DNA of 64,000 nt from an uncultured Clostridia bacterium (GTDB lineage Bacteria > Bacillota > Clostridia > Oscillospirales > CAG-272): contig CALWJW010000001.1 of the NCBI GenBank assembly GCA_944381095.1, forward strand, positions 1,987-65,986, read 5' to 3'. Made by a program: the position numbers and the translations under genes. Below the pieces are notes generated by a model. That model saw nothing but the letters and a program-made list of their open reading frames with translations. It had not been told where the DNA came from and ran no database searches. Below are positions 28,804-59,299 of the stretch, in pieces. The first letter of the stretch is position 1; each line of letters begins with the position of its first letter.

Positions 28804-28814
28804 TTTATCACCTT

Positions 28815-29864: not shown

Positions 29865-29869
29865 CGTCA

Positions 29870-38014: not shown

Positions 38015-38482
38015 ATGCAGGCAGACAACGCAAAAAAAGTCATAACCACAAACAGAAAAGCTTATCACGATTATTTCGTTGAAGAAACGTTTGAAGCCGG
38101 TATAGAGCTGTACGGAACCGAAGTAAAAAGCATAAGGGCAGGTCAGGTAAACCTGAAAGATTCATATGCGATAATTGACGGCGGAGAGATTTACGTAACC
38201 GGTATGCATATAAGTCCGTATGAAAAAGGCAATATTTTCAACCGTAACCCTCTGCGTGACAAAAAACTTCTGATGCACAAAAAAGAGATACTCAGGCTGT
38301 CCGGAAAGGTGAGCAAGGACGGTCTTGCGCTGATTCCGCTTTCTCTTTATTTTTCCGGAAGCAGAGTAAAAGTAGAGCTTGGGTTGTGCCGTGGAAAAAA
38401 ATTGTACGACAAACGTGAAAGCGACGCAAAAAAACAGGCAGACAGAGATATAGAAAGATATTCAAAAACCTCCTACCGTTGA
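38015..38482 (+). CDS. smpB: SsrA-binding protein SmpB
   Basis: 155 aa with [24 protein letters not shown]. Confidence 0.95.
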
Positions 38483-38516
38483 GTAACCTTTCCGGCAAAC
38501 CGAATAAAAAATGAAG

Positions 38517-38568
38517 AACAGGCTGCTCCTAAACCGCATTCAAAGAGGTTTAACGAGCAGCCTGTTTT
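38517..38568. terminator. hairpin shared by convergent smpB and the DUF1540 gene
   Basis: AACAGGCTGCTC / GAGCAGCCTGTT (12 bp) with inner stem TAAACC/GGTTTA, then TTTTG. Confidence 0.6.
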
Positions 38569-38605
38569 GCCATCAGCTATTTACAGATATCATTTGCCGA
38601 TATGA

Positions 38606-38806
38606 TCAGTTTTTCGGAGCAAATGAAGAACAGTCAACGCAACGGCATTCGGTGGGGTTTTTCTCGTGAGTGGTTATCTTGACCTTTTCGAGAGAACAAT
38701 AGTTCTCGCCGGTGCAATGATGAACGCATTCACATACTGTACAGCTGATCGACTTGTTAGGGGTGCAGCAGTTTTTTCCTGAGCAGGAATTTTCAGCTTT
38801 ATTCAT
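38606..38806 (-). CDS. DUF1540 cysteine-rich small protein
   Basis: 66 aa with two repeats of the C-x-V-x-x-C-x-H motif region (CTVCECVHHCTGENYC). The SD is AAGGAGG. Confidence 0.8.
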   Translation of the reverse strand: MNKAENSCSGKNCCTPNKSISCTVCECVHHCTGENYCSLEKVKITTHEKNPTECRCVDCSSFAPKN

Positions 38807-38892
38807 TGATACAACCTCCTTTTCTTCGGTTTGATTATATTATTTCACGCAAATTGCTGCTTTATTCAGCGAGCCAAAGAAACAAGTAACTC

Positions 38893-38921
38893 TTGACAAA
38901 ATAAATAAAGTTTGTTATATT
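38893..38921 (+). promoter_or_regulatory. candidate promoter of the isomerase gene
   Basis: TTGACA, a 17-nt spacer, TGtTATATT. Confidence 0.6.
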
Positions 38922-38996
38922 ATAGTTGCCGGATGGAGCAAGTTGAACAAACAGGCACATGCGGCAATAATAAACTATCTGAAACGGAGAAAAAAC

Positions 38997-44089: not shown

Positions 44090-44255
44090 GCGAAAAATGT
44101 AAGAAAAAATGCACAAAAAATCATATGAAGACTTGTTGAAAGAGTAAAACTCAACAAATGGGATTCAATTTTCATATTTTATTAACACAAAACGACACGG
44201 TATGTGTTATGATATTTTACAGATAAAAATTGCCTTAGGAGGGGAATTAACAAAA

Positions 44256-45815
44256 ATGAAGAAGAAAAGGAGTATACTTGCGCTTCTGCTTGTGTTTTCG
44301 CTGGTGTTAGCGTCTGTGGCGCTGAGCGGATGTAAACCGGACGATGACGATGTTGACGAAGATTATGTAGTTCCGGAAGAGGATCTTTCGCCGGCTTTCG
44401 CAAACGAAGCTCTCAGATTCAGCGGATCGTTTACGGTTATGACTGAGCTTGACAGATCTGAAGGACAGGCATGGAATATTGTTGATCTTGTAGAGGAAAA
44501 CAATCTCGGAGATTCTGCTATAAAGGAGGCCGTGGCGACCAGAAATAACCTGATAAGAAGGAATTTCGGTGTGAAGATCGCCAGGGCAACATCTCAGAAT
44601 ATCGGAGAGGATTCGCTTCAAGCGGTTAATTCAGGAGACGATTCATATGATGCCTTTATGCTTTCAATAACCAACGGACTTAATCTTGCCTGTGGCGGAG
44701 GTCTTCTTGATTTTTCTATGTGTGACTACATAGATCTGAATCAGGATTGGTGGGATCAGGGTATAACCGAGAGTCTGCTGTTGGCGGGCGGTGCTTACAT
44801 AGCGGTCGGTGACCTGCTCACCGTTGATAAAGACGGTACCTGGTGTGTTCTCTTCAACAAGGATAATCTTTCTGAAATGAATCGCGGTCTCACTGACACA
44901 AAACTTTATCAGATGGTCAAGGACGGAATAGGTCAAGCCGGAGGATGGACTCTTGAATATCTGATGACACAGGCACAGGCACACAGCACAACTGAATTTG
45001 ATTCAAATAAAAATATCTGGGCAACCGATTATCAGGGATCCGGTAAATACGGAATATTTACACAGAAAGAGGTAGCAACAGTATTTTTGCAGTCGGCAGG
45101 TTATACGCCGACGGTTGTCGATAACAGTCTTGCCGGTGTGAAGGCAAACATGGATTCAAATGCGTTCGGTGACGCAGTGGATATGGTTTGGCAGAATTTC
45201 GGACAAAGGACAAATACTGAGTGGTTCCTTGACCTTGACACTGTCGTCGGAAATGACCCGGTAGACGGATGGCAAAATATAGCGCGCGGCGGATTCATGG
45301 CAAATAAAGCCACGTTCTTTATCTGCCACGTCGGAACTATAAATCTGATAAGAGACATGAAATCGGATTTCGGAATTTTACCGATACCGAAATTGTTCGA
45401 GTCTCAGACGGAGTACGGAAACACAATACAGTACGGAAACGGACACTGTTATGTTGTGCCGGACAGAGCCGGTGATTCTCTTGACGAAAAATCAACATAT
45501 ATACTCGAAGCTATGGCTTACTATTCAAGTCAGGAATACGGCGGTGAGACCAGCCTCAACTATGCTTACTACGATATAGTTCTCCGCGGAAAAGCATCCA
45601 GAGATGACGACTCATGGGAAATGCTTGACCTTATATTCGACACGCGTGTATATGACTTTGCGTGCGCTCTTGATATCAAGAATGTTAACAACGTTATCAG
45701 AGAATCGGTGTGCGAACTTGATTATAGGTGGAGTTCAAAAAGAGATTCTTTTCTCGACGGTTTTGATGATGCAATAGCCGAAGCATTGAAAGGACTTACA
45801 AACCCTGATACTTAA
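44256..45815 (+). CDS. extracellular solute-binding lipoprotein (ABC SBP family 1-like), orphan
   Basis: This is ORF 44202..45815 with the start moved to MKKKRSILALLLVFSLVLASVALSGC (lipobox). It is a large (~520 aa) sugar-SBP-like protein. No permease or ATPase genes are adjacent. Confidence 0.7.
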   Translation: MKKKRSILALLLVFSLVLASVALSGCKPDDDDVDEDYVVPEEDLSPAFANEALRFSGSFTVMTELDRSEGQAWNIVDLVEENNLGDSAIKEAVATRNNLIRRNFGVKIARATSQNIGEDSLQAVNSGDDSYDAFMLSITNGLNLACGGGLLDFSMCDYIDLNQDWWDQGITESLLLAGGAYIAVGDLLTVDKDGTWCVLFNKDNLSEMNRGLTDTKLYQMVKDGIGQAGGWTLEYLMTQAQAHSTTEFDSNKNIWATDYQGSGKYGIFTQKEVATVFLQSAGYTPTVVDNSLAGVKANMDSNAFGDAVDMVWQNFGQRTNTEWFLDLDTVVGNDPVDGWQNIARGGFMANKATFFICHVGTINLIRDMKSDFGILPIPKLFESQTEYGNTIQYGNGHCYVVPDRAGDSLDEKSTYILEAMAYYSSQEYGGETSLNYAYYDIVLRGKASRDDDSWEMLDLIFDTRVYDFACALDIKNVNNVIRESVCELDYRWSSKRDSFLDGFDDAIAEALKGLTNPDT

Positions 45816-45822
45816 ATTTAAC

Positions 45823-45853
45823 AAAAAAAGCTACCCGATGGGTAGCTTTTTTT
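45823..45853 (+). terminator. intrinsic terminator
   Basis: AAAAAAAGCTACCC-gat-GGGTAGCTTTTTTT. Confidence 0.85.
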
Positions 45854-46175
45854 GTTGGAGCAATATTTTACTTATTGCTTTCAAAAAAATAACAAATCGA
45901 TACTGCCGGTTAACAAACTATCTTCCAAAAATGCGGTTTTTAAGCTTAAAATGCAAAAAAATGCAGTTTTTTTCACATTTTTTAAAAAAATCGAGAAAAA
46001 AGCGTCGAGTTTTTGCCTGCAAGAACAAAATGTTAACAAAATTACAAAATACAGTTAATAATAATAAAGTATAATATGTAATAAAATATAGGCTGTACGG
46101 AGCGAAATTTAACAGAATCAGGTAAGCGGGAACTTTGGATTTCCAATCAATTATAAAAAAAGTTGTGAGGTGCTT

Positions 46176-47891
46176 ATGGAAGTATATTACGAATGGCTGA
46201 AACAAAAACTTGACGACGATGACCTGACAAAAGAATTGAAAGAAATAGAAGGAAAGGAAGACGAAATATTTGAAAGATTCCGTTGCGACCTTGAATTCGG
46301 TACCGGAGGACTGAGAGGAATACTCGGAGCCGGAACCAACAGAATGAATATATACACAGTCGGAAGGGCTACACAAGGGCTGGCGAACAGTCTGAAAAGC
46401 GAAAACAAGGGAAAGAATAAGGAACTCTCAGTAGCAATTGCTTACGACAGCAGAAACAAAGGCAGATTGTTTGCTGAAAGATGCGCGTCAATATTAGCGG
46501 CTAACGGGATCAAAGTATATCTCTATTCTGAACTTGCCCCAACTCCGGCTCTTTCTTTTGCTGTGAGATATTATAAATGTGACGCCGGAATATGTGTAAC
46601 GGCCAGTCATAATCCGGCTGAGTATAACGGATATAAGGTGTATGGCGATGACGGATGTCAGCTTGGTCCGGCGCTTGCCGACGTGATTCTTTCGGAAATA
46701 GGAAAAACAGATATCTTTACCGGTGTGAAATTAACAGATTATAATTCGGCGGTAGAGTCCGGAAAGATAGTACTTGTCAACGATGAAGTTTACACAGCAT
46801 TCATAGAGGCGGTCAAAAATCAGAGCTTGCTGACTGACGAGCTTAGAAATGGCGACAAATTGAAAATAGTTTACACGCCCCTGAACGGTACCGGAAGAAG
46901 GGGTGTTACAACTGTGCTCGGGGAAGAGAGCAGTTACAGACTGATCGTAGTAAAAGAGCAGGAACTGCCGGACGGAAATTTCCCGACTTGTCCTTACCCT
47001 AACCCCGAGAATCCCGATGCAATAAAACTTGCGCTGAAATATTGTGAGGATTATGATGCGGACATAATGATAGCGACCGACCCTGATTGTGACAGGTGCA
47101 GAGCTGCATCGAAATACTGTGGAGGCTATAAGGCACTTTCCGGCAACGAACTCGGAATACTGCTTATGGATTACTTGTCAAAAAGGAAAACGGAGCTCGG
47201 AAAAATGCCCGGAAAACCTGTTGCCGTGACTACGATAGTATCAACGGCAATGGTCGATAAGATTGCGGAAGAGTACGGAATAGAAATGAGAAGAGTACTG
47301 ACCGGATTCAAATATATAGGTGAACAGATCGGTCTTCTTGAAGCAGAAGGACGAGCCGATGATTATATTTTCGGATTTGAGGAGAGCTGCGGATATCTTT
47401 CCGGAAGTTATGTCAGAGATAAAGACGGAGTGAATGCGGCGATGCTGACAGCCGAAATGGCGCTTTATTATAAAAGGCAAGGACTTACGCTTGCTGAGGT
47501 ATTTGACCGCTTATGTGAAAAATACGGCTACTATAAAGAAGGACTGATCAATTACGCATTTGAAGGCGCAGAAGGCGTTGAAAAGATGAAAGCTATTATT
47601 GACGGTCTGAGAAATGATCCGCCGCAACTACTTTCCGGTGAAAAAGTCGTAAAAGTTAAAGATTACCACAAGGATGGACTGCGCGAGGGAGAGTACAACA
47701 GCAATACGGGATTGCCTGATTCCAATGTACTTGAATTTGTCACCGCCAACAAGTGCAAGGTGATAGTCAGACCGTCAGGAACCGAACCGAAAATGAAGGC
47801 ATATATTTCGACTGTCGGAAAAAGTGCAAAGGAAGCACAGAGCTTGCTTGAAAAACTCAGAAAAGATCCGGTACTTGATTTTAAGAAATGA
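46176..47891 (+). CDS. alpha-phosphohexomutase (phosphoglucomutase/phosphomannomutase, PgcA-like)
   Basis: ~571 aa with the active-site loop TASHNPAEYNGYKVY, the metal site ATDPDCDR, and GFEESCGY. ATG 46176 lies 5 nt after GAGG. Confidence 0.85.
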   Translation: MEVYYEWLKQKLDDDDLTKELKEIEGKEDEIFERFRCDLEFGTGGLRGILGAGTNRMNIYTVGRATQGLANSLKSENKGKNKELSVAIAYDSRNKGRLFAERCASILAANGIKVYLYSELAPTPALSFAVRYYKCDAGICVTASHNPAEYNGYKVYGDDGCQLGPALADVILSEIGKTDIFTGVKLTDYNSAVESGKIVLVNDEVYTAFIEAVKNQSLLTDELRNGDKLKIVYTPLNGTGRRGVTTVLGEESSYRLIVVKEQELPDGNFPTCPYPNPENPDAIKLALKYCEDYDADIMIATDPDCDRCRAASKYCGGYKALSGNELGILLMDYLSKRKTELGKMPGKPVAVTTIVSTAMVDKIAEEYGIEMRRVLTGFKYIGEQIGLLEAEGRADDYIFGFEESCGYLSGSYVRDKDGVNAAMLTAEMALYYKRQGLTLAEVFDRLCEKYGYYKEGLINYAFEGAEGVEKMKAIIDGLRNDPPQLLSGEKVVKVKDYHKDGLREGEYNSNTGLPDSNVLEFVTANKCKVIVRPSGTEPKMKAYISTVGKSAKEAQSLLEKLRKDPVLDFKK

Positions 47892-47920
47892 GACAAACCT
47901 GAAAGGAATTTAATCCGAAT

Positions 47921-48997
47921 ATGGAAAGAGTAGCGGTAATAATGGCAGGAGGCCGCGGGGAAAGACTGTGGCCAAAAAGCCGCAAAGACTGTCCGAAGCA
48001 GTTTCTGTCCGTAGGAAGAGACAATAAATCATTGATAGTGCAGACCGTCGAAAGGATGCAGAAGCTAACGGATCTGAGGAGAATTTTCATAGTTACCGGA
48101 AAGGACTATTATGAACTTACAAGGAGTCAGCTTCCGGAGCTTCCCGCGGAAAACATTATTTGTGAACCGATGGGAAAGAATACCACCGCATGTATCGGCT
48201 ATGCATGTGAAATAATAAAGAAGAGAATAGGTGATGCCGTGATGATGGTGGTGCCGTCTGATCATCTTATCAGACGGATAAAGGCATTTACATCAGATCT
48301 CAGAAAATGCTGTACATTGGCGGAGAGACACAATACCATCGTTACAGTCGGAATAACGCCGACAAAGCCTGAAACCGGATTTGGTTATATTAAAATTCAC
48401 AGGGAAAAACCAATAGAAAACACTACTTTGTCGTGGAAAATGGCAAAATTTGTCGAAAAGCCGGATTTGAAAACAGCGACGAGGTATGCGTCATCCGGAA
48501 AATATTTTTGGAATGCCGGTATGTTCGTTTTCCCGGTATCATACATGTTGCGCTGTATCAAGAGGTTTTGCCCGCATAATTCACAGTGCCTGACTACAAT
48601 AGGAAAGAGCATAGGCAAAAAAAATGAAGAACTGATAACATATCAGAATTTCGAAAAAATGGAATCGATTTCAATAGACTACGCCGTAATGGAGCATGTG
48701 CGCGGCAGCATAACAGTCCAGTCTACATTCGAATGGAATGACGTAGGTACGTGGGCGGCAATTTCCGAGATACAGAAACCGGACAGCAACGGCAATTTCG
48801 TTAACGGGGCGGCTGTATCCTTTGAGAGCAGCGGCAATATAGTTGAAATTCCGGAGGATAGACTCATAGCGCTGCTTGGCGTGAAGGATCTGGTGATAGT
48901 TGAATCAGGAAACGCGATACTGGTATGCCACAGGGATTACGCACAAAGAATAAAGGAAGCGACACGTCAGATATCAGACAGTCCGGAATATTTATGA
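47921..48997 (+). CDS. manC: mannose-1-phosphate guanylyltransferase (no PMI/cupin domain)
   Basis: 358 aa with VIMAGGRGERLWPKSRKDCPKQFL and VPSDHLI, plus FVEKPD...YFWNAGMFVF. Confidence 0.85.
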   Translation: MERVAVIMAGGRGERLWPKSRKDCPKQFLSVGRDNKSLIVQTVERMQKLTDLRRIFIVTGKDYYELTRSQLPELPAENIICEPMGKNTTACIGYACEIIKKRIGDAVMMVVPSDHLIRRIKAFTSDLRKCCTLAERHNTIVTVGITPTKPETGFGYIKIHREKPIENTTLSWKMAKFVEKPDLKTATRYASSGKYFWNAGMFVFPVSYMLRCIKRFCPHNSQCLTTIGKSIGKKNEELITYQNFEKMESISIDYAVMEHVRGSITVQSTFEWNDVGTWAAISEIQKPDSNGNFVNGAAVSFESSGNIVEIPEDRLIALLGVKDLVIVESGNAILVCHRDYAQRIKEATRQISDSPEYL

Positions 48998-50166
48998 AAA
49001 TAAGATTCGAGGCAACGCCAATAGCGTCAGAACAGCTGACGGGAATAGGAATACACGAAAAAGAACTTTGTACGGCAATGATAAAATCGGCTCCGGAAAA
49101 CGAGTATGAGTTCACCTATTTTTCTGCCAGAGACAGGAAAACCAAGCAGAAAATAATGAAAACATATGAAAGCGACAACGTAAGGATAAGGGAGTTGTCT
49201 TTCATGACGTCCGGCTTTTACCGGATAATTCAGTGTTTTCTCCCTATCCCCTACAAGTGGTTTTTCCGCGGAAAACCTGATGTTACGCATTTTTTTAATT
49301 TTCTCATCCCCCCCGGAGTCAAAGGTAAGGCTGTGGTGACAGTTCACGACCTTGCCTTTGTAAGATATCCGGAAACCGTTTTGTTAAAGACACGCAAGTT
49401 ACTTTCGCTCAGGCTGAAAAGCACTCTGAAAAGGGCAGACCACATATTTGTGGCGTCAGAGTTTACCGGAGAAGAACTGAACGAAGTATACGGGGTTCCA
49501 AAAGAAAAAATGACGGTGGTGTACGCCGGTGTAGACAGAGACCTGTTCAGACCGAGAGAAGAAAGCGAATGCGCCGATGTCCTCAGAAAATACGGTGTCA
49601 AATACAAAAGTTATTTTTTCTACCTCGGAACCATAGAGCCGAGAAAAAATCTGAAAAGACTGGTAAATGCATATGCCGCTGCCTGTGAAAGGCTGAAAAG
49701 CGAGGGAAAAGATATACCGCCGCTGGTGCTTGCGGGAAAACTCGGATGGTATTATGAGGAAATAGAGAAAGCCATAAAATCAACCGGGAACTCTGCCGGC
49801 ATAATAACACCGGGTTATCTCAGCGACAAGGAAAAGGCAGTTTTGTATTCCGGAGCCAAAGCGTTTCTTTTTCCGTCACTTTATGAGGGATTCGGAATAC
49901 CTGTGCTTGAAGCAATGTCAAGCGGGGTAGCCGTACTTACATCTAATATTTCATCTCTGCCTGAGGTGGCAGGGGACTGTGCGGTACTTTGCAACCCTGA
50001 ATCAGAAAGTGAAATATCGGACGGTATTTACAAACTGAGTGTTGACGGAAGGCTGTGTGAAGAACTTTCAGAAAAGGGTTACAGGCGTTCAGATAATTTT
50101 TCGTGGGAAAAAAGCGCCGAAGTTATGCTCGGCGAATACCGGAAACTGACAGAAGGTATTAGATGA
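48994..50166 (+). CDS. glycosyltransferase family 4
   Basis: This is ORF 48925..50166 with the start moved to ATG 48994, which overlaps the manC stop (ATGA). It is GT-B, with FPSLYEGFGIPVLEAMSSGVAVL. Confidence 0.8.
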   Translation: MKIRFEATPIASEQLTGIGIHEKELCTAMIKSAPENEYEFTYFSARDRKTKQKIMKTYESDNVRIRELSFMTSGFYRIIQCFLPIPYKWFFRGKPDVTHFFNFLIPPGVKGKAVVTVHDLAFVRYPETVLLKTRKLLSLRLKSTLKRADHIFVASEFTGEELNEVYGVPKEKMTVVYAGVDRDLFRPREESECADVLRKYGVKYKSYFFYLGTIEPRKNLKRLVNAYAAACERLKSEGKDIPPLVLAGKLGWYYEEIEKAIKSTGNSAGIITPGYLSDKEKAVLYSGAKAFLFPSLYEGFGIPVLEAMSSGVAVLTSNISSLPEVAGDCAVLCNPESESEISDGIYKLSVDGRLCEELSEKGYRRSDNFSWEKSAEVMLGEYRKLTEGIR

Positions 50167-50290
50167 CATTACTACGCCTTTAATGAGTTACAGAGACCGG
50201 TTCGTAACCGACTTGACGGAAGAATGAAGTCGGCGTTTTTTGCCGTAAAGGGCAGTTATTTTAATTAAAAATGATCGAGGATTTCTCGTT

Positions 50291-51484
50291 ATGACAGATA
50301 TAAATACAACTACCGATTTGCCAGCGCCTGAAAAAAGGTTCAGAATACTTCAGGCCGCAAAATGGTACAGTCCGGAAGTCGGAGGAATAGAGACAGTAGC
50401 ATTGGCGATAACCGCAGCGGTAAAGGATAAGGCGGAGATGAAAATACTCGTCTGTTCCGGAAAGAAGGACAAAAAAGAGGAATACACACCGGAAGGGGTG
50501 TACATATACCGTGCGCGTACGCCGTTCTGTTTTTTTTCTATGCCGGTGTCATTTGACTACATAAGGGCGTTCAGAAAAATGTCTGCGGATGTGGATCTGA
50601 TACAGTTGCATGCTCCTTTTCCTTTGTCAGATCTCGCGCTGTTTCTCAGAAAACGCAAAAGGAAAATAAAAAAGGTTATCTGGTGGCACAGCGATGTGGT
50701 CAAACAGAAAAAACTGATGTTTTTCTACGCGCCGCTGCTGAAATGGATGCTGAAAAAAGTCGACAAAATATATGTGGCCAGCCAATCAATAGCAGAACAA
50801 TCAAGATATCTTGGAAAGTATCAGGATAAAATAGAGATAATCCCTTTCGGAATATCGTCCGCCGATTACAATAAAGTGAAAACCGCACCCGTTCTTACAC
50901 AAAAACTGAGTAAAAAGGACAGAGTGAAAATACTTTTCGTAGGACGTCTGGTCTATTATAAAGGTGTAGACGTTTTGCTTGAAGCTCTCTACAAAACACA
51001 GAACACCGAGCTTTTTATAATCGGCGGAGGCGAGCTTGAAGGGCAGCTTAAAAAGAGAGCGGCGGAACTGAAAATTTCAGACAGAGTGCATTTTATGGGT
51101 AAGATCGGAAAGAAAAAGCTGCTCAATTCTTTTTCAGACTGTGATATTTTTGTTTTGCCGTCGGTAAGCCGCGCAGAGTGCTTCGGGCTGGTACAGCTTG
51201 AAGCCATGGTGTATGGAAAACCGGTAATAAATACAAAACTCCCGACAGCTGTGCCGGAGGTGAGCGTTGACGGGGAAACAGGGATAACGGTAGAACCCGG
51301 CAACGCTGATGAACTTGCAAATGCCATACAGAAACTGACTGATGACAAAGAACTGAGGGAACAATACGGAAAGGCAGCCAGACAGAGATGCGAGGAATGC
51401 TACAGTCTTGACAAAATGCAGGAAAAATTGTATAATTCATATCTGAGTGTGTTGGGACTGGAGGACAGTCAGGCAGAAAACTGA
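50291..51484 (+). CDS. glycosyltransferase family 4
   Basis: 397 aa with WYSPEVGGIETVA and LPSVSRAECFGLVQLEAMVYGKPVI. Confidence 0.85.
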   Translation: MTDINTTTDLPAPEKRFRILQAAKWYSPEVGGIETVALAITAAVKDKAEMKILVCSGKKDKKEEYTPEGVYIYRARTPFCFFSMPVSFDYIRAFRKMSADVDLIQLHAPFPLSDLALFLRKRKRKIKKVIWWHSDVVKQKKLMFFYAPLLKWMLKKVDKIYVASQSIAEQSRYLGKYQDKIEIIPFGISSADYNKVKTAPVLTQKLSKKDRVKILFVGRLVYYKGVDVLLEALYKTQNTELFIIGGGELEGQLKKRAAELKISDRVHFMGKIGKKKLLNSFSDCDIFVLPSVSRAECFGLVQLEAMVYGKPVINTKLPTAVPEVSVDGETGITVEPGNADELANAIQKLTDDKELREQYGKAARQRCEECYSLDKMQEKLYNSYLSVLGLEDSQAEN

Positions 51485-51497
51485 GAAAGGTTAAACA

Positions 51498-52343
51498 ATG
51501 CAGAAAGAGACAGATAGCAGAAGCAAAACGGTCAGCGTGAGAAAGACCGGACAGAAGGAAAGTTTTTTACAGACGGTAAAAGAGATATATTCGTACAGGC
51601 AGATGATAGTGGCGTTTGTGCGCAGAGAGCTCAGGGGAAGATACAAGGGTTCGTTTCTCGGCTTTTTGTGGACTTTTCTGAATCCGCTTTTACAGCTTTG
51701 CGTTTACAGCATAGTATTTTCGACGATACTTCAAAGCGGAATAGAAAAATATTATCTTTTCTTGTTTGTCGCACTGATCCCGTGGATCTTTTTTTCGTCG
51801 TCAGTGCTCGGAGGAGCTGCTTCGATCATATCACAGAAAGATATGGTCAAAAAGATATATTTTCCGAGAGAAGTACTTCCTATCTCAACAGTCACTACGA
51901 ATTTTGTCAACATGCTGCTTTGTTTTATAGTAGTGTTCGCGGTTGTTTTGCTGTCCGGAATAAGGCTGAATTTTCCGGCGTTGCTTTGTCTGATACCTGT
52001 TTGGGCGGTAGAGTATCTGCTTGCTCTCGGAATGGCATTTCTCACGTCAGCGGTGACAGTATATTTCAGAGACATGGAGCATATACTCGGTATAGTAATG
52101 ATGGCATGGCAATACCTTACACCGGTGCTTTACAGTTACGATATTATTCCGCAGCAATATAAAGTCATATTTGACCTGAACCCCATGACGCCGATAATAA
52201 CAGCATACAGAGATATTTTGTATGAATCAAAAATACCTGATTTCAAATCGCTTTTAAGTGCAACGGTTATGGGACTGATAGTGTTACTTATAGGGTGGAT
52301 AGCGTTTTCCAAACTGAAAAGGAGGTTTGCGGAGGAGCTGTAA
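51498..52343 (+). CDS. ABC-2 type polysaccharide/teichoic acid export permease (Wzm/TagG-like)
   Basis: 281 aa with 6 TM helices and LRGRYKGSFLGFLWTFLNPLL at the N-terminus. Confidence 0.85.
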   Translation: MQKETDSRSKTVSVRKTGQKESFLQTVKEIYSYRQMIVAFVRRELRGRYKGSFLGFLWTFLNPLLQLCVYSIVFSTILQSGIEKYYLFLFVALIPWIFFSSSVLGGAASIISQKDMVKKIYFPREVLPISTVTTNFVNMLLCFIVVFAVVLLSGIRLNFPALLCLIPVWAVEYLLALGMAFLTSAVTVYFRDMEHILGIVMMAWQYLTPVLYSYDIIPQQYKVIFDLNPMTPIITAYRDILYESKIPDFKSLLSATVMGLIVLLIGWIAFSKLKRRFAEEL

Positions 52344-52362
52344 AAAATCCGCAGGATTAGAA

Positions 52363-53118
52363 ATGGAAGTGATAAACTGTGATGACAACGTGTATTCCAT
52401 AGAAGTGGAAAATGTTTACAAGCATTACAGAATATATAAGGACAAGGGAAGCCAACTAAAAGAAAAGCTTTTGTTCTGGTCCAGAAATAAATACACTGAA
52501 AACGCTGTGCTGAAAGGCATATCGCTCAAAGTGAAAAAAGGCGAGGCAGTGGGTTTTGTCGGACATAACGGTTGCGGAAAAAGTACCCTCCTGAAACTCC
52601 TCAGCAGAATAAGCTACCCGGATAAAGGAATAATAACAACAAGAGGCAGGATATCGGGGCTTATTGAGCTTGGCGCCGGATTTCATCCTGACATGACAGG
52701 AAGGGAAAATATATACACCAATGCGTCAATATACGGGCTGTGCAAGAAAGAAATAGATAAACGGCTTGATAAGATAATAGAATTTTCCGGACTTGGCGAA
52801 TTTATAGACGCGCCGGTAAGAACATATTCTTCCGGAATGTATATGCGACTCGGATTTTCGGTGGCGATCAATGTTGATGCAGATATACTGCTGATAGATG
52901 AAATACTCGCGGTCGGTGACAGTGAGTTTCAGGCGAAGTGTCTGAACGAGCTGAAAGAGGTAAAATCAAGAGGGACAACAATAGTGATTGTCAGCCATTC
53001 CTTGAACCAGATCGAAGAGATATGTGAAAAGAGCTACTGGATCCAGAATGGGGAAATTTGTATGGAGGGAGATCCGAGAGAGGTGCACAGGGCTTATCTT
53101 GAAGCCACGGTACATTGA
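52363..53118 (+). CDS. polysaccharide export ABC transporter ATP-binding protein (Wzt/TagH-like, short form)
   Basis: This is ORF 52327..53118 with the start moved to ATG 52363. It has Walker A GHNGCGKST, signature YSSGMYMRLGF and Walker B ILLIDE. There is no C-terminal carbohydrate-binding extension. Confidence 0.85.
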   Translation: MEVINCDDNVYSIEVENVYKHYRIYKDKGSQLKEKLLFWSRNKYTENAVLKGISLKVKKGEAVGFVGHNGCGKSTLLKLLSRISYPDKGIITTRGRISGLIELGAGFHPDMTGRENIYTNASIYGLCKKEIDKRLDKIIEFSGLGEFIDAPVRTYSSGMYMRLGFSVAINVDADILLIDEILAVGDSEFQAKCLNELKEVKSRGTTIVIVSHSLNQIEEICEKSYWIQNGEICMEGDPREVHRAYLEATVH

Positions 53119-53119
53119 T

Positions 53120-54508
53120 ATGCGCGCTGAAACAAAACTGAAATCAAATGTAAATCTATCCGGATTTATTTCGGAAGAGTATTTGTCCGATATGAAGGTC
53201 GGGAGATTTATTACAAATACGAAAAGACCGGAGTCAATTATCGGTTTTCAGGAGGTTAACGCGATTGAGTTCAGTTCAAGAGCAAACTCCCCGTATAAGC
53301 TCGAAGAAAATGATAATTCCGGTATGAGCAACCTTAATGTTGAAGATAAGAAAAATCAGCGGTCGGCAGAGAACCGATTTGATTCTTTTGAAAGCAGGCT
53401 GAAATTAACGGTTACGGTACTGATGTCAGCAGTACCGTTTTGTCATTATATTTTCAGCGGGGCAGTATTGTTGGCGGTTTCGCTTCTTCTTATCGCGATT
53501 CCTGCGTCAAGGAGAGAAATACTGCGTCAGAGAAGAATGGTGCTGTTAACAGTTATTATTTCTTCAATGTCGCTTCTTGTATCGGTAATTAACGCCAATA
53601 TAATAGGTATATTCATTACGTGGGGTATATTTCTGATCCTTATGGACGGAGCATACCTGAGAAGCGTCATGAACAGTTATTTATTGCGGATATCTTCCCT
53701 GACTGTCGCTGCCGGAGGAATTATAACAGCGCTGATAGTGATAGTACAGCGTGTAAATTTCGAAAATCCGGATCACAGACCATACGGTCTGGCATATAAT
53801 CCGAACTATCTCGGCTCGATAGCAGTGCTCTCAGCTGTGTTTGTTATTGTAATGTTATTTGACGGTAACTTTAAGCAAACCGGAAGAGAGATAATTGTTA
53901 AATCGTTTTATGCTCTGTCACTTATATGTGATGTGATAACTATACTGATAAGCGAAAGCAGGTCGTCATTGCTTGCGCTGACAGCGGCTGTGATAGTGTT
54001 TGTTTTTCTTAAAGGACATTATGTAATTACGGCTGTTTGCTGTGTTGCGGGTGCGATGATCTGGGTGGTAGGTCTGATAGATCCGGGCATATTTTCATGG
54101 ACGAATTCGCTGACAGAAGTCTTCTCCGGCAGGGTGGAAATATGGAAGGACGCATTTAAGTCGTTTTCGTCTGATTTTTTCACTGCAATGTTCGGACGAG
54201 GTCCTATGACATATTATCTTGTGAAAAATTCAGAGGGACTTACAGAGGCAAATCACGCTCATAACATACTGCTTGACACGCTTATAAACGCTGGGATTAT
54301 CGGCTTTTTCATTTACTTGGCGATAGTGGCGGACATACTAAACAAAGCATTTGATTTGAGTCGCAAGGGCGACAAGACCTCGTTTATACTGATTACCGTT
54401 GCGGTATGTGGCGTGGCAGTGCAGCGAATTCCCGATGTCACGATAATGTGGCACCAGACTGCGATACTGTTTATGATAATCTGCGCCGCAAAAAAAGTAA
54501 ACGATTAA
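53120..54508 (+). CDS. O-antigen ligase / O-antigen polymerase family (Wzy_C) membrane protein with N-terminal soluble extension
   Basis: This is ORF 53024..54508 with the start moved to the first ATG after the Wzt stop (53120). It has ~120 aa of hydrophilic N-terminus, then ~10 TM helices, with the periplasmic-loop motif region SESRSSLLAL and ...ANHAHNILLDTLINAGIIG. The start is uncertain and no clear SD is present. Confidence 0.7.
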   Translation: MRAETKLKSNVNLSGFISEEYLSDMKVGRFITNTKRPESIIGFQEVNAIEFSSRANSPYKLEENDNSGMSNLNVEDKKNQRSAENRFDSFESRLKLTVTVLMSAVPFCHYIFSGAVLLAVSLLLIAIPASRREILRQRRMVLLTVIISSMSLLVSVINANIIGIFITWGIFLILMDGAYLRSVMNSYLLRISSLTVAAGGIITALIVIVQRVNFENPDHRPYGLAYNPNYLGSIAVLSAVFVIVMLFDGNFKQTGREIIVKSFYALSLICDVITILISESRSSLLALTAAVIVFVFLKGHYVITAVCCVAGAMIWVVGLIDPGIFSWTNSLTEVFSGRVEIWKDAFKSFSSDFFTAMFGRGPMTYYLVKNSEGLTEANHAHNILLDTLINAGIIGFFIYLAIVADILNKAFDLSRKGDKTSFILITVAVCGVAVQRIPDVTIMWHQTAILFMIICAAKKVND

Positions 54509-54621: not shown

Positions 54622-54649
54622 AAGCCGCTCAGGCGGCTTTTTTGTTTTT
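54622..54649 (+). terminator. intrinsic terminator of the glycan operon
   Basis: AAGCCGC-tcag-GCGGCTTTTTTGTTTTT. Confidence 0.8.
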
Positions 54650-54776: not shown

Positions 54777-54805
54777 TTGACTTTTATGACTAAATAATGT
54801 ATAAT
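54777..54805 (+). promoter_or_regulatory. consensus promoter of the MBOAT module
   Basis: TTGACT, a 17-nt spacer, TATAAT. Confidence 0.65.
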
Positions 54806-54843: not shown

Positions 54844-57084
54844 ATGAGACTCAGGCACTTAAAAATCGTACTTATCCCGGTCGTCTTAGTGATAACCTTG
54901 ATGACATTTTGCGGTTGCTTTGACATAGACGATGTCATAGTTGATCTCGGACTGTACCAAAGAAACACAAAAGCCAATACCAAATTTACTGTCGTTGTCC
55001 GGGAAACCGCCGGAGTGACAGTGGACGGTGACAGTGTAAAAGAAGTTGCAAGCGGTCAAAAGGCAGTGTTCAAGGTTTCAATTGACGAAAATAACTATGT
55101 ATACCTAGGAAATACGGCTGACGCCAGTTACAATTCGAAAGATAAAACGCTTACAGTCAGCCGTGTACAATCGCCGATGACGATAGATTTTATTCTTGTG
55201 GACAAGAGCGAACTGTACTGCGTGAACACCTACTCGAATGTCAGTTCCGGCTATATAAGCTTTGTACAGGGAAGCTCCCTTATGCTGGAGCCAGAAAAGG
55301 TAACAGTGCAGGTAACTGTACCCAGCGGTTATATTTTCCAGGGTTGGACGGTCGGAGAGTATCTCGATAACGGTGGTAAGCTGGTGGGAACCGACCCGGT
55401 ATATTCATTCACACCCGAAGACAGAAGAGTTGACCTTTATGCTAACCTTGCAAGTGAGTCACAGTACAGGATAACATATGACGCAAACGGCGGAAGCATA
55501 AAGAACTTCTCGGGAGAACAGTACACTATACGCGGAACTTTCAGTACAATGTTTTCAATGCAACAGACGCTGAATGAAAACAATTCCGGCGTAAAATTCG
55601 AAAGACCGGGTTATACGGCGATAGGTTACAGCACTGAAAAAACAACGGATTACCGTGATTATAATTCTGTGAACGATATAGAAGGATTCAGCAACATGGG
55701 CGGAGTGTGCCAGGTGCCTTCATCAGGATCGCTTACTCTGAATGTCGTGTGGGCTGAAAACACAGCAGAATCGGATTTTGAAGTCCAATCTGTTACATAC
55801 ACCGATGTTTACAGCGAGGGAGGGGTCGAAGGAAGCGGTAAAATTACCAAATCCGGTTGCATTATAACGAGGTGTACTGTAAGGTCTGATACTGTCGTCA
55901 TTCCCGAAACAATCAACGGACAAACGGTTATCGGAATAAAATCCGGTGCATTCAACGGAAACGTGTTGCAAAAGATAGTTATACCGAAGACGGTGCTGAG
56001 AATTGAAAGCGATGCGTTTACCGGAAGTTACAGGCTCAGAGAAGTAGTGTTCTTTGACAGTTTACAGTACGTAAGCAATTCAAGTTTTCCGAACTCAGTG
56101 CAAACAGTGGTAATGAACGCACAGAGGCTTCCGGTGTATGCGGGATCTGCGGAGGGTAGCTTTTGTATAAAATACGAGAGAGTGAGAACCCTGAAAGGTA
56201 AAAAGCTTATAGTCGTGTCCGGCTCGTCGACGCTCAACGGACTTAATTCTCCTCAGCTTGAAGAGAATTTCGACAACGAATACAGCGTTGTCAACTACGG
56301 TACAAATGCCGGTACTCAGATGCTGTTTTATCTTGACGTGATTTCAAATTACACAAAACCAGGCGATATCGTTATTCATGCTCCCGAGTGGAATTCAGAC
56401 GGTCCCATGGGAGGCAACAGCATTCAATGGAGGATGTTCAGAGGCAATAATCAGTGCTATGACATATTCAGAGAAGTAAATATGTCTGAATACAGCAATT
56501 TCTGGGGTGCATATCAGTTATTCCAGATAGGCGGGAAAAACGGTAGCGAAATTGTTATCGGTGCGGTTACCATGAAAGGTAAAGAGTATCAGAATTCAAA
56601 CACCGGAATGAATCTTTACGGAGATCTGCTCGGTAACAGGTATAATTACAACGGATTTTCGTATTCATCGGTTCAAGGATTTTCAGAGTCCTACATAACT
56701 TCGAATAAAAGGGCGGAAAACCTTAACAGAGTAAATTCACGGATAACGGCAAAGGGCGGCACGCTGCTGTTCAGCTTCGGCACAATGCTTTACGAAAGAC
56801 TGAGTCCCGGTGTAAGGAACGCGTCTGATTACGATAATTTCACTAAGCAGTGCGCAAATGCGCTTGATTTTCCGGTTATATCAAACGTCGGAACTTATCT
56901 TTTCAAGGAAAGGTATATGAGCAATTCAGAGTGGCACTGCACATATGAAGGTGCTGATATAAGGACTGAGGAGCTCACTTATGACCTGAAAAAATTCTTG
57001 AATTCGTCAGGACTCAGCGATACCTACGAGACGTACAACACGAGAAAATCTCACAATTCATCGGCATATCAGAACGGAATGTGA
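54844..57084 (+). CDS. lipoprotein: Flg_new-type repeats + BspA-type LRR + C-terminal DltD/AlgX-like (SGNH-like) domain
   Basis: 746 aa with the lipobox LMTFCGC. The repeat motifs are FQGWTV, YRITYDANGGS and PGYTAIGYS. The LRR is VVIPETINGQTVIGIKSGAFNGN..IVIPKTVLRIESDAFTG. The C-terminal domain is KKLIVVSGSSTLNG...APEWNS...NSEWH. Confidence 0.75.
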   Translation: MRLRHLKIVLIPVVLVITLMTFCGCFDIDDVIVDLGLYQRNTKANTKFTVVVRETAGVTVDGDSVKEVASGQKAVFKVSIDENNYVYLGNTADASYNSKDKTLTVSRVQSPMTIDFILVDKSELYCVNTYSNVSSGYISFVQGSSLMLEPEKVTVQVTVPSGYIFQGWTVGEYLDNGGKLVGTDPVYSFTPEDRRVDLYANLASESQYRITYDANGGSIKNFSGEQYTIRGTFSTMFSMQQTLNENNSGVKFERPGYTAIGYSTEKTTDYRDYNSVNDIEGFSNMGGVCQVPSSGSLTLNVVWAENTAESDFEVQSVTYTDVYSEGGVEGSGKITKSGCIITRCTVRSDTVVIPETINGQTVIGIKSGAFNGNVLQKIVIPKTVLRIESDAFTGSYRLREVVFFDSLQYVSNSSFPNSVQTVVMNAQRLPVYAGSAEGSFCIKYERVRTLKGKKLIVVSGSSTLNGLNSPQLEENFDNEYSVVNYGTNAGTQMLFYLDVISNYTKPGDIVIHAPEWNSDGPMGGNSIQWRMFRGNNQCYDIFREVNMSEYSNFWGAYQLFQIGGKNGSEIVIGAVTMKGKEYQNSNTGMNLYGDLLGNRYNYNGFSYSSVQGFSESYITSNKRAENLNRVNSRITAKGGTLLFSFGTMLYERLSPGVRNASDYDNFTKQCANALDFPVISNVGTYLFKERYMSNSEWHCTYEGADIRTEELTYDLKKFLNSSGLSDTYETYNTRKSHNSSAYQNGM

Positions 57085-57406: not shown

Positions 57407-58891
57407 ATGGTCTTCAATTCTCTGGAATTTCTTATATTTTTTCCGATAGTACTCATTCTTTACAGAATATTGCCCCTTAAAATCCGCTGGGTAATGTTGC
57501 TGATAACAAGCTACTACTTCTATATGGGCTGGCAGGCGGACCTTTTATATCTTATTCTTTTTACAACTTTGGTGTCGTACGTGTGTGCCAGAAAGATAGA
57601 GGCTTCTGTGACCAAAAGAGCCAGGAAAATATATCTCGTAATCGCCTTGGTCGCTTCTCTCAGTGTGCTTTTCTTTTTCAAATATTTCAATTTTCTCTCA
57701 GAAAATGTTACAGGACTATTAGAGCTTATGGGATTCGGAGTAAGTGAGTTTACTCTTAATCTTATTCTTCCTGTGGGCATATCCTTTTACACATTCCAGA
57801 CTCTCTCATATGTCATCGACGTTTACAGAGGTATGATAAAAGCGGAAAAACATTTTGGTTATTACGCGCTTTATGTTTCATATTTTCCGCAGCTTGTCGC
57901 CGGACCTATCGAAAGACCCGAAAACCTTCTTCCGCAGCTCAAAAGAAAAAATCCGTTCACGGCATATGACACAGCAGTAGGACTTAAAATGATGGCGGTA
58001 GGATTTTTCAAGAAGGTAGCGGTGGCTGACCAGATATCCAAATATGTAGACGGCGTTTACAACAATCTGGATAAAACGACGCCCGGACTCATCAACGGTT
58101 TCACGATAACAGTTGCAACGGTATTGTTTGCAGTACAGATCTACTGCGACTTTTCCGGATACACCGACATAGCGATCGGTTGTGCAAGGGTAATGGGAAT
58201 AAAGCTGATGCAAAACTTCGATAACCCATACTCTGCGACGAGTATAAAGGACTTCTGGCGCAGATGGCATATCTCACTGACATCCTGGTTTACAGATTAT
58301 TTATATATACCTCTCGGAGGATCCAGGTGCAGTAAAGTAAAGCATTACAGAAACATCCTGATAGTATTTTTCATTTCAGGTGTATGGCACGGTGCGGCAT
58401 GGACGTTCATCCTCTGGGGAACAATGCACGGAATATATCAGATTGTCGGAAACATTACCGCAAAATACCGGGTGATGTTGTGGGATAAGCTTGGAGTAAG
58501 TCAGCAGAATCCGATACTTGTAATTGCAAAAAAGATCGGAACCTTCGCTTTGGTATGCATAGCATGGATGGCATTCAGGGCAAACAGTCTTCGGGATCTC
58601 GGGTTCTTATACAAGCAATTGTTCACAGGATGGTCCGGAGTCAGCATCACCGAATCAATGAAAGCACTTGACATGTCGGTTATGGCATTGATGACGGTAG
58701 TATTTTCGGTGTTCGTTATAAACCTGCTTGACAAACAGATAAATCTGCGCATAGATGAGCTGCACCTTGACTCGGGACTCAGTGTTCCGAGAGCAAATGC
58801 CTATATAACGGTATGCTGGACAGTCTGTGTTGCCTGGCTTATACTGCTTGCTTCAAACGCAGCGAGTTCGTTTATATATTTCCAGTTCTGA
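57407..58891 (+). CDS. MBOAT family O-acyltransferase (AlgI/DltB-like)
   Basis: 494 aa, polytopic, with MVFNSLEFLIFFPIV, VGISFYTFQTLSYVIDVY, FWRRWHISLTSWFTDYLYIPLGGSR and ISGVWHGAAW (containing the catalytic His). Confidence 0.9.
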   Translation: MVFNSLEFLIFFPIVLILYRILPLKIRWVMLLITSYYFYMGWQADLLYLILFTTLVSYVCARKIEASVTKRARKIYLVIALVASLSVLFFFKYFNFLSENVTGLLELMGFGVSEFTLNLILPVGISFYTFQTLSYVIDVYRGMIKAEKHFGYYALYVSYFPQLVAGPIERPENLLPQLKRKNPFTAYDTAVGLKMMAVGFFKKVAVADQISKYVDGVYNNLDKTTPGLINGFTITVATVLFAVQIYCDFSGYTDIAIGCARVMGIKLMQNFDNPYSATSIKDFWRRWHISLTSWFTDYLYIPLGGSRCSKVKHYRNILIVFFISGVWHGAAWTFILWGTMHGIYQIVGNITAKYRVMLWDKLGVSQQNPILVIAKKIGTFALVCIAWMAFRANSLRDLGFLYKQLFTGWSGVSITESMKALDMSVMALMTVVFSVFVINLLDKQINLRIDELHLDSGLSVPRANAYITVCWTVCVAWLILLASNAASSFIYFQF

Positions 58892-58966: not shown

Positions 58967-59164
58967 ATGTTTTTAAACGATAAAAGAACCAGCACGCAGT
59001 ATATACTATGTTGGATATTCACGCTGGGGATATACAATGTGATATTCAAGAGACAGGTCGCCTCCGATATCAACAAGATATTCAAAGCGAAAAAGGTTGA
59101 ACTTCCGGGAGCAAAATACTTTTTCCTTAACTTTATAACACTGAGAATTAACGGTGGAACATGA
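58967..59164 (+). CDS. small membrane protein fragment (DUF4234-like GIY hairpin), ends at an in-frame TGA
   Basis: 65 aa. The SD AAGGAAGG lies 7 nt upstream. YILCWIFTLGIYNVIF resembles the TCGIY helix of DUF4234-type proteins (from memory). It is in the same frame as ORF 59300..61186. Confidence 0.4.
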   Translation: MFLNDKRTSTQYILCWIFTLGIYNVIFKRQVASDINKIFKAKKVELPGAKYFFLNFITLRINGGT

Positions 59165-59299
59165 GACATACAGGTACTTGAACTGATTCAGGGATATATA
59201 AAAGAAAACGGTTCTGATGTCACGATCGATTACGAAAATTACAAATTTTTCGGAAAAATCCCGATAGCCAGAGTAACTATTGTCGCCGACTTTATCAAA

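Follow-up and report, generated by a model that had tools for sequence, protein, structure and literature searches.

A seven-gene operon conserved among uncultured Clostridia, with a probable role in making, exporting and anchoring a mannose-rich surface glycan

The stretch of DNA analysed here, called the window below, comprises 64,000 nucleotides of contig CALWJW010000001.1 (assembly GCA_944381095.1, positions 1,987 to 65,986 of the forward strand) from an uncultured Clostridia bacterium of the lineage Oscillospirales; CAG-272, and carries on its plus strand, at 46176-54508, the operon with which this work is concerned. A first-pass annotation, made from the DNA letters alone, had described it as seven genes encoding, in this order, a phosphohexomutase of the phosphomannomutase/phosphoglucomutase (PMM/PGM) type, ManC, two family 4 glycosyltransferases (GT4a and GT4b), a Wzm-like permease and a short Wzt-like ATPase of an ATP-binding cassette (ABC) exporter, and a protein with a Wzy_C domain. 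All seven genes are present at these coordinates, and comparisons with Pfam and NCBIfam bore out both their content and their order. The genes are co-directional, with small or overlapping gaps, and the earlier description of two junctions, the ATGA overlap (48994-48997) and TGAtATG (53116-53122), agrees with the sequence to the letter.

Strong terminator-like hairpins on both sides, tight spacing and domain content were counted in favour of a single unit, and we treat the seven genes as one transcription unit within a pathway model that, taken as a whole, we hold to be a little more probable than its negation. Promoter-like sites, recognized by their match to the consensus, precede the first gene and lie within the 3' end of the GT4b gene (Table 1); judged from its sequence, the latter, 60 nt 5' of wzm, could be an internal promoter for wzm, wzt and the ligase gene. 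No riboswitch was found in the 300-nt operon leader, Rfam returning only two tRNAs for the whole window. The gene directly 5' of the operon (44202-45815), which occupies this position in most relatives, encodes a predicted lipoprotein of 537 amino acids (aa) with a signal; it was rejected as a member of the system, since it matches no family and is separated from the operon by a strong terminator.

Table 1. Coordinates of the operon, of the second locus, of the downstream cassette and of their putative signals in the window
Feature	Coordinates	Strand	Family match or remark
Phosphohexomutase	46176-47891	+	Pfam PGM_PMM_I-IV; ~571 aa
ManC	47921-48997	+	Pfam NTP_transferase and ManC_GMP_beta-helix; without phosphomannose isomerase (PMI) domain
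GT4a, WbdB-like	48994-50166	+	Pfam Glyco_transf_4 and Glycos_transf_1
GT4b, WbdC-like	50291-51484	+	Pfam Glyco_transf_4 and Glycos_transf_1
Wzm-like ABC-2 permease	51498-52343	+	Pfam ABC2_membrane
Wzt-like ATPase	52363-53118	+	Pfam ABC_tran only; 251 aa
Predicted WaaL/TacL-type (Wzy_C) membrane ligase	53120-54508	+	Pfam Wzy_C; 462 aa
Terminator-like hairpin, 5' boundary	45817-45859	+	20-pair stem and T run; ends the upstream lipoprotein gene
Promoter-like site before the first gene	46033-46062	+	TTAACA-18-AATAAT, 10/12; consensus match only
Promoter-like site within the GT4b 3' end	51408-51436	+	TTGACA-17-TATAAT, 12/12; consensus match only
Terminator-like hairpin, 3' end of the seven-gene unit	54622-54639	+	From the sequence
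GT4c	27487-28818	-	Pfam Glycos_transf_1
GT4d	28815-29864	-	Pfam Glycos_transf_1
Coiled coil and WbdD(O8)-like S-adenosylmethionine-dependent methyltransferase	29870-31006	-	Pfam Methyltransf_23; 378 aa
Promoter-like site of the cassette	54777-54805	+	Consensus match
Membrane-anchored LRR_5 and C-terminal SGNH-like protein	54844-57084	+	Pfam LRR_5; first cassette gene
Small hydrophobic protein, 102 aa	57095-57403	+	No family match
MBOAT acyltransferase, DltB/AlgI/PatA type	57407-58891	+	Pfam MBOAT
Second SGNH-like/LRR_5 protein	58967-61186	+	AlphaFold (AF2) and Foldseek; in-frame TGA, long open reading frame restarts at 59300

The contigs of relatives, together with a survey in which each species was represented by one genome, all from metagenome-assembled genomes (MAGs) of uncultured Clostridia, showed the seven-gene order to be kept in 12 independent loci (L005-L010, L012-L014, L016, L025 and L026), a recurrence which argues that the operon is not a product of chance. 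Among the seven, the Wzy_C gene has diverged much more than the rest (32-68% identity, as against 45-95% for the other six). A reduced variant, seen in L003 and L004 (L003, 5681-11176), consists of PGM, ManC, a glycosyltransferase of 433 aa and the Wzy_C gene, with an MBOAT cassette adjacent; the glycosyltransferase retained in it is of the GT4b type.

Two annotated E. coli clusters, O9 of strain HS and O8 of strain IAI1, served for a direct comparison with the proteins of the operon. The mutase has the four domains of PGM/PMM enzymes, with the motifs TASHNP, DPDCDR, GFEESCG and RPSGTEP in its translation, finds its best sequence matches of known structure in the PGM/PMM proteins 9du5 and 1wqa, and shares 25% identity with the O9 ManB. 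Its gene lies directly 5' of manC in all relatives, and it would be a phosphomannomutase supplying mannose-1-phosphate. ManC is 34% identical to the O9 ManC (E 1e-63) and covers positions 3-346 of the 467 in the GMP/PMI model TIGR01479, so that the PMI cupin is absent. The first-pass annotation had staked its reading on a relation of the two glycosyltransferases to mannosyl transfer, and this is what was found: both are GT4 enzymes by Pfam, and within an O-antigen comparison set made up of the mannosyltransferases WbdB and WbdC, with rhamnosyltransferase relatives lying outside it, each matches one of them over its full length. GT4b matches WbdC (31% identity; E 7e-56 with 178 bits for O9, 9e-55 for O8), which RefSeq labels an Und-PP-GlcNAc 3-alpha-mannosyltransferase (Und-PP, undecaprenyl diphosphate; GlcNAc, N-acetylglucosamine), and GT4a matches WbdB (30-31% identity; E 4e-54 with 174 bits for O9, 2e-55 for O8). 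GT4a, whose translation contains an EX7E motif, also matches single domains of WbdA, including both glycosyltransferase domains in the O9 comparison. Solved structures are matched at only 65-70 bits (PimB', PimA and an MshA-like enzyme), compared with about 175 for WbdC and WbdB; for GT4b, PimB' and PimA, at 65 bits, are the next best characterised relatives. By these comparisons GT4b and GT4a qualify as orthologue-grade counterparts of WbdC and WbdB, respectively; GT4b would add the first mannose to Und-PP-GlcNAc, and GT4a would act as a second or adaptor mannosyltransferase.

The exporter proteins point in the same direction. The permease is 28% identical to the O9 Wzm (E 8e-41), and the ATPase is 47% identical to the nucleotide-binding domain (NBD) of the O9 Wzt (E 4e-73) and 65-66% identical to the NBDs of proteins from two other bacteria (L027 and L028) in which this domain is joined to Wzt_C. 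The pair has, by sequence, the Wzm/Wzt homology that an ABC-transporter-dependent pathway calls for. In this lineage the Wzt relatives measure 251-261 aa, whereas those of L027 and L028 carry Wzt_C. The absence of a C-terminal cap-recognition domain from the window protein, which has ABC_tran and no Wzt_C, had been recorded correctly before, and it implies that capping, if it occurs, is not read by the exporter.

Functions missing from the window were sought with Pfam in every non-shadow open reading frame (ORF) of at least 150 aa in the 64 kb. No primer of the WecA/MraY type (PF00953) or of the WbaP type (PF02397) was found, in agreement with the earlier statement that no priming transferase is encoded here, and none was seen in the operon-bearing loci with called genes either. 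The scan was likewise negative for PMI, as had also been stated, for LCP proteins and for a Wzx flippase. Where the first-pass annotation went too far was in counting the lack of a primer and of PMI, together with the short Wzt, as oddities. A priming transferase is likewise missing from the annotated O9 and O8 clusters of E. coli. The gene for WecA, an enzyme shared between pathways, belongs to the enterobacterial common antigen (ECA) cluster, and in Gram-positives a primer of the WecA/TagO type commonly lies away from polymer-specific clusters. PMI is usually a housekeeping enzyme encoded elsewhere, ManC proteins without a PMI domain are common, and short Wzt proteins that lack the carbohydrate-binding domain have been described, the Klebsiella O2a galactan system being one case.

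The Wzy_C domain of the last protein of the operon scores 56.7 bits against a Pfam cut-off of 31.7. An AF2 model built on 24 relatives reached a predicted local distance difference test score (pLDDT) of 78.8, with values exceeding 90 across the greater part of the membrane core. The comparison with WaaL structures that had been proposed in the first-pass annotation gave a WaaL fold: WaaL (7tpg) was the one significant neighbour in Foldseek (E 1.6e-6, TM-scores 0.54/0.61, 16% identity in the alignment), and SEDS proteins ranked far behind it. Together, the domain score above threshold and the predicted WaaL-like fold place the protein in the WaaL/O-antigen ligase superfamily. Residues R220, R281, R338, H379 and H381 (HAHN motif) are invariant in the 24 sequences, and a crude positive-inside analysis predicts that all five lie on the outer face; the extracytoplasmic loop with invariant His and Arg is short, at about 65 aa. 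Such a predicted outward-facing conserved site would be required of a WaaL-type enzyme whose substrate is an exported Und-PP-glycan. The exact sequence of the protein is not on record, and its 47 relatives detectable in a large protein collection are all unnamed or generically named. These relatives are 382-425 aa long, with a conserved core of about 390 aa. Residues 1-80 of the window ORF (53120-53360), disordered in the model, are confined to this species and to P0001, which is 99% identical; since this extension has neither a counterpart elsewhere nor a predicted fold, translation may in fact begin at the ATG at 53324. A decayed Wzt_C domain was considered for the extension and rejected, no similarity being found in any frame.

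A second locus of the window, the minus-strand triad at 27487-31006, encodes two further GT4 enzymes (GT4c and GT4d) and a methyltransferase, and had gone unnoticed. The methyltransferase resembles the corresponding domain of the O8 WbdD (38% identity over 155 aa, E 6e-37); it gave no match to the O9a WbdD and none to the WbdD chains in the PDB, where the best hit was the uncharacterised 3dli. Some of its homologues bear the JGI label 'O-antigen chain-terminating methyltransferase', and by sequence it would be a chain-terminating methyltransferase, while GT4c and GT4d would extend the chain. GT4c matches the third glycosyltransferase domain of the O8 WbdA over its full length but weakly (E 2e-8), and neither the operon nor the triad encodes a WbdA-type protein with several glycosyltransferase domains, either by Pfam or by comparison with O8/O9. 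In L027 and L028 the methyltransferase-GT4d-GT4c triad (identities of 44-49%, 64-65% and 49-54%, respectively) stands directly 3' of wzm and of a wzt bearing Wzt_C, an order of wzm, wzt, terminator and glycosyltransferases that is also that of E. coli. Both clusters carry manC, and that of L027 also has PGM-like (50%) and GT4a-like (38%) genes. In MAG assembly CALWJV01, a triad (L029; 83% identity for GT4d, 87% for GT4c) and the operon (L012) occur together on different contigs. Because the triad is syntenic with wzm-wzt in other bacteria, the pathway is probably split over two loci, the operon providing precursors, adaptor glycosyltransferases, exporter and ligase, and the triad providing extension and capping. 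With a WbdD(O8)-like methyltransferase and two more GT4 enzymes in the window, the likeness to E. coli O8 is closer than had been claimed: the parallel drawn in the first-pass annotation holds and was understated. A gene of the alpha-mannosidase family GH92 (31427-33475), without an obvious signal peptide, adjoins the triad, and another GH92 gene was seen near a distant Wzy_C relative in L019.

Directly 3' of the operon lies a cassette, also not mentioned before, of an MBOAT acyltransferase, a small hydrophobic protein and two proteins with leucine-rich repeats (LRR). Residues 429-719 of the first LRR protein are 31% identical (E 1e-19) to a domain of the protein restarting at 59300; this shared domain of about 300 aa belongs to no Pfam family and has more than 400 relatives. 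Pfam yielded nothing usable for the isolated domains, and the full-length 59300 protein gave only LRR matches among PDB sequences. The model of the domain (pLDDT 93.4) has SGNH folds as its top Foldseek matches, including DltD (6o93/7dxm) and PatB (8tlb), with modest E-values (6e-4 to 1e-2) and low TM-scores, and its invariant residues are GGSS...D293...H297, the Ser being S61. The cassette agrees with the description of an MBOAT protein with an extracytoplasmic SGNH-fold partner carrying Ser, Asp and His. The MBOAT protein matches the DltB model TIGR04091 over its full length (E 3.5e-45), and identity with DltB itself was rejected, as its 155 bits are far below the cut-off of 375. A gene for 72-102 aa stands between the LRR protein and the MBOAT gene in L001, L003, L005, L022 and L023. 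In the second LRR gene, an in-frame TGA (59162-59164), at a position where the closest relative (L001) has TGG for Trp, severs a DUF4234-like N-terminal part (58967-59161); a nonsense mutation and an error in sequencing are both possible explanations, and elsewhere in the window TGA is a normal stop. The cassette lies 3' of the operon in eight of the 13 informative genomes (the window, L001/L002, L003/L004, L005, L006, L009, L016 and L025), is absent from this position in L007, L010, L012, L014 and L026, and occurs in L022 and L023 without any mannan operon. Since it is missing beside some operons and present alone elsewhere, we regard it as a separable module that is often adjacent, with a suggestive link to the mannan; it probably O-acylates a surface polymer, and this glycan is possibly its target. 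The remaining window resembles an ordinary Clostridia chromosome (mutS, mutL, tgt, dnaK, grpE, hrcA, ffh, smpB, floA), and neither ARAGORN nor Rfam detected a tmRNA gene in the 460-nt gap after smpB (38015-38942) or elsewhere in the window.

The operon is real and conserved and represents a known type of pathway in an unstudied lineage, its most likely product being a mannose-rich glycan that is exported and fixed to the cell surface. As judged by homology, GDP-mannose supply, WbdC/WbdB-like transfer, Wzm/Wzt export and a WaaL-fold transferase are all represented, and to this extent the core of the first-pass interpretation (a lipid-linked mannose glycan, ABC export and ligase-like transfer) is supported, including its parallel with E. 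coli O8/O9a polymannose, which the WbdC-like GT4b, the WbdB-like GT4a and the Wzt NBD bear out. We propose, with somewhat better than even confidence, a clostridial counterpart of the E. coli O8/O9a polymannose pathway, in which an ABC-exported mannose glycan is ligated to a glycolipid. The mutase and ManC, which have the appropriate domains, would make GDP-mannose, and an enzyme of the WecA/TagO type encoded outside the window would make Und-PP-GlcNAc; a GlcNAc-1-P primer of this type is suggested because GT4b is WbdC-like and because there is the E. coli precedent. GT4b would then add the first mannose and GT4a the next ones, as their homology indicates, and the triad would probably extend the chain and cap it with methyl groups, as synteny in other bacteria suggests. 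Wzm and the short Wzt would export the lipid-linked glycan without cap recognition, and the WaaL-fold Wzy_C protein would move it from Und-PP to an acceptor on the outer face of the membrane. Since TacL of Streptococcus pneumoniae is the best monoderm precedent and the conserved core is of the same size, the acceptor is most likely a membrane glycolipid, giving a lipomannan-like lipoglycan, although by analogy this is only weakly ahead of a surface protein, our second choice. A more elaborate version, in which monoderm gut Clostridia make an O8-type, possibly methyl-capped polymannan, anchor it to a glycolipid by the WaaL-fold enzyme as a lipomannan resembling LPS O-antigen, in a Firmicute, export it independently of the cap after loss of the Wzt domain, and acylate it by a hitherto undescribed MBOAT/SGNH-LRR system, is tentative and, in all its parts together, rather unlikely.

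Several observations weigh against this proposal. The link between operon and triad rests on synteny in distant organisms, and the two lie 15 kb apart on opposite strands in the window and on different contigs in CALWJV01. A WbdA-type polymerase is missing from the operon itself, and the Wzt encoded there does not have the cap-binding domain that normally accompanies a WbdD-type terminator, so the methyltransferase of the triad may serve another pathway. The Wzy_C protein found no sequence-level match to any solved structure when a subfamily profile was run against the PDB, even at E 10, and it scores 33.7 bits against the cut-off of 100 for the EpaQ family of NCBIfam; a literature search on EpaQ returned nothing useful. 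The reduced variant keeps GT4b and Wzy_C genes without GT4a, Wzm and Wzt, which argues that the ligase is not strictly dependent on this transporter. To our knowledge, the donor specificity of GT4 enzymes is not readable from sequence, and relatives of WbdC and WbdB in D-rhamnan pathways use GDP-D-rhamnose. The donor sugar, the polymer length and the acceptor are, in sum, points that we infer.

Among the alternatives, the one that departs least from the proposed steps keeps the same pathway and makes the Wzy_C protein an O-oligosaccharyl:protein transferase that would attach the mannan to a surface protein, of an S-layer or otherwise, as has been proposed for WsaB and WsfB of Geobacillus and Paenibacillus slg clusters. 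The combination of wzm, wzt and a Wzy_C protein in Gram-positive slg clusters (PMC2943079) speaks for it, as do the large LRR_5 proteins, which are secreted and encoded directly 3' in the eight genomes named above. In the window, however, neither an S-layer gene nor an SLH or CWB2 domain was found; the LRR proteins are part of a cassette that is seen without the operon and missing beside some operons, and were down-weighted as dedicated glycosylation targets on the ground that the cassette exists independently; the conserved core of about 390 aa matches TacL and WaaL in size; and there is no tetratricopeptide repeat (TPR) motif or TPR partner, unlike in WsfB, in PglL, or in WsaA next to WsaB (PMC2943079). 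We consider transfer to protein unlikely on balance. A self-contained operon is also conceivable, in which the WbdC/WbdB-type adaptor enzymes build a short oligomannoside on Und-PP-GlcNAc, with no polymer, that is exported and ligated while the triad works in another pathway. The lack of a WbdA-type multi-domain polymerase, the unlinked triad of CALWJV01 and the Wzt without a cap-reading domain would all fit, and close homologues of the triad were seen for just two operon-bearing species. Against it, Wzm/Wzt exporters are typical of polymers, L027 combines operon-type genes and triad in one cluster, and GT4a, since it matches both glycosyltransferase domains of WbdA, could itself be processive; a short product thus seems distinctly unlikely to us.

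The sugar itself might differ, the product being a polymer of, for instance, D-rhamnose or another sugar derived from GDP-mannose; the gmd/rmd genes would then lie elsewhere, on the pattern of CPA-type pathways of Pseudomonas. It counts for this possibility, and against mannose, that L027 and L028, in which both the triad and the Wzt relatives have their closest known contexts and which encode glycosyltransferases 64-65% identical to GT4d, carry gmd/rmd-type genes; no gene of the GDP_Man_Dehyd type was found, however, in the 64 kb or in the operon-bearing loci with listed genes and Pfam matches, and we judge this version improbable. The first-pass annotation had itself named TagGH teichoic-acid export as a competing explanation, and this could be joined to a role of the Wzy_C protein as a Wzy-type polymerase. 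The best NCBIfam matches of the ATPase are indeed TagH models, and the Pfam family Wzy_C includes polymerases too, but these matches reach only 217 bits (cut-off 538) and 199 bits (cut-off 320), far from the likeness of the ATPase to the O9 Wzt (47%) and to Wzt proteins with Wzt_C (65%), and the Pfam scan of the window detected no TagB/TagF, TagD, Wzx, Glyphos_transf or cytidylyltransferase gene. ABC-dependent pathways polymerise in the cytoplasm and require no Wzy, and because the chain would be made there a polymerase role of the Wzy_C protein is unlikely; the teichoic-acid explanation as a whole appears very improbable.

Should the proposed polymannose pathway be right, uncultured gut Clostridia display a surface polymer of the alpha-mannan type made by the logic of enterobacterial O8/O9 antigens, which could be a ligand for mannose-binding host receptors, and they provide a further case, after TacL, of a WaaL-type ligase in bacteria without an outer membrane. 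The analysis supplies WbdC-like, WbdB-like and WbdD-like annotations for genes that are unnamed in these MAGs, and it draws attention to a partner domain of MBOAT proteins that is widespread and stands outside all Pfam families. Nothing is overturned; pathways of this type, primers encoded apart from the cluster and Wzt proteins of the short form were all known already. Of some interest, though none is strongly surprising, are the split organisation, the WbdD-like methyltransferase beside a Wzt without a cap-binding domain, the WaaL/TacL-type ligase within the operon of an apparent monoderm, and the hitherto undescribed SGNH-like/LRR domain that accompanies the neighbouring MBOAT.

Compared with the clusters of E. 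coli O8/O9a and Klebsiella O5/O3 (manC, manB, wzm, wzt, wbdD, wbdA, wbdB, wbdC), the operon shares the genes for GDP-mannose supply and, presumably, a primer encoded outside the cluster. It differs in that the candidate genes of the window are distributed between two loci, one on each strand, in that two single-domain GT4 enzymes stand in place of the multi-domain WbdA, and in that its Wzt is without the C-terminal cap-binding domain. The coiled coil of the methyltransferase is N-terminal, whereas that of WbdD is C-terminal, and in the O9a WbdD a kinase accompanies the methyltransferase. The mutase is of the 570-aa PGM2/PgcA-like type, unlike that of E. coli, a ligase gene is contained in the operon, and the host, unlike E. 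coli, is apparently a monoderm without lipid A-core.

The downstream cassette fits the general scheme of polymer acylation by MBOAT and SGNH proteins (PMC12148441). Like PatA/PatB, AlgI/AlgJ/AlgX and DltB/DltD, it joins an MBOAT protein to an SGNH-fold partner; it has two membrane-anchored partners, with an SGNH-like domain that stands outside Pfam and is fused to LRR_5 repeats, no DltA or DltC, and, in distinction from the known pairs, a small membrane protein of 72-102 aa that is always present.

The slg clusters of Geobacillus stearothermophilus and Paenibacillus alvei, which contain wzm, wzt and wsaB/wsfB, overlapping genes and a Wzy_C transferase (PMC2943079), resemble the window operon as Gram-positive ABC-dependent glycan clusters of overlapping genes with such a transferase. 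This part of the parallel drawn in the first-pass annotation stands; it does not extend to the primer and the S-layer gene, as slg clusters have their own WbaP-type primer (WsaP/WsfP), rhamnose genes, an adjacent S-layer gene and a protein acceptor. The first three are absent from the window, in which no Bac_transf, SLH or S-layer gene was found, whereas an in-cluster WbaP-type primer and a linked S-layer gene belong to the slg type.

WaaL (7TPG), while being the only significant structural match of the window protein, shares with it 16% identity and no sequence-level match, and its acceptor is lipid A-core; no LPS (lipopolysaccharide) genes were seen, and as the host belongs to a Clostridia MAG lineage, an acceptor other than lipid A-core is to be anticipated there. 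The closest monoderm precedent, which the ligases cited in the first-pass annotation did not include, is TacL (RafX) of Streptococcus pneumoniae, a protein of 397 aa with a Wzy_C domain that is required to attach Und-PP-linked teichoic acid to glycolipid (PMC5727136). TacL, unlike the window protein, acts on a teichoic acid made by Wzx/Wzy, and its gene is not beside an ABC exporter; the two are likened by size and domain, both being Wzy_C membrane proteins of about 390-400 aa from monoderm Firmicutes.

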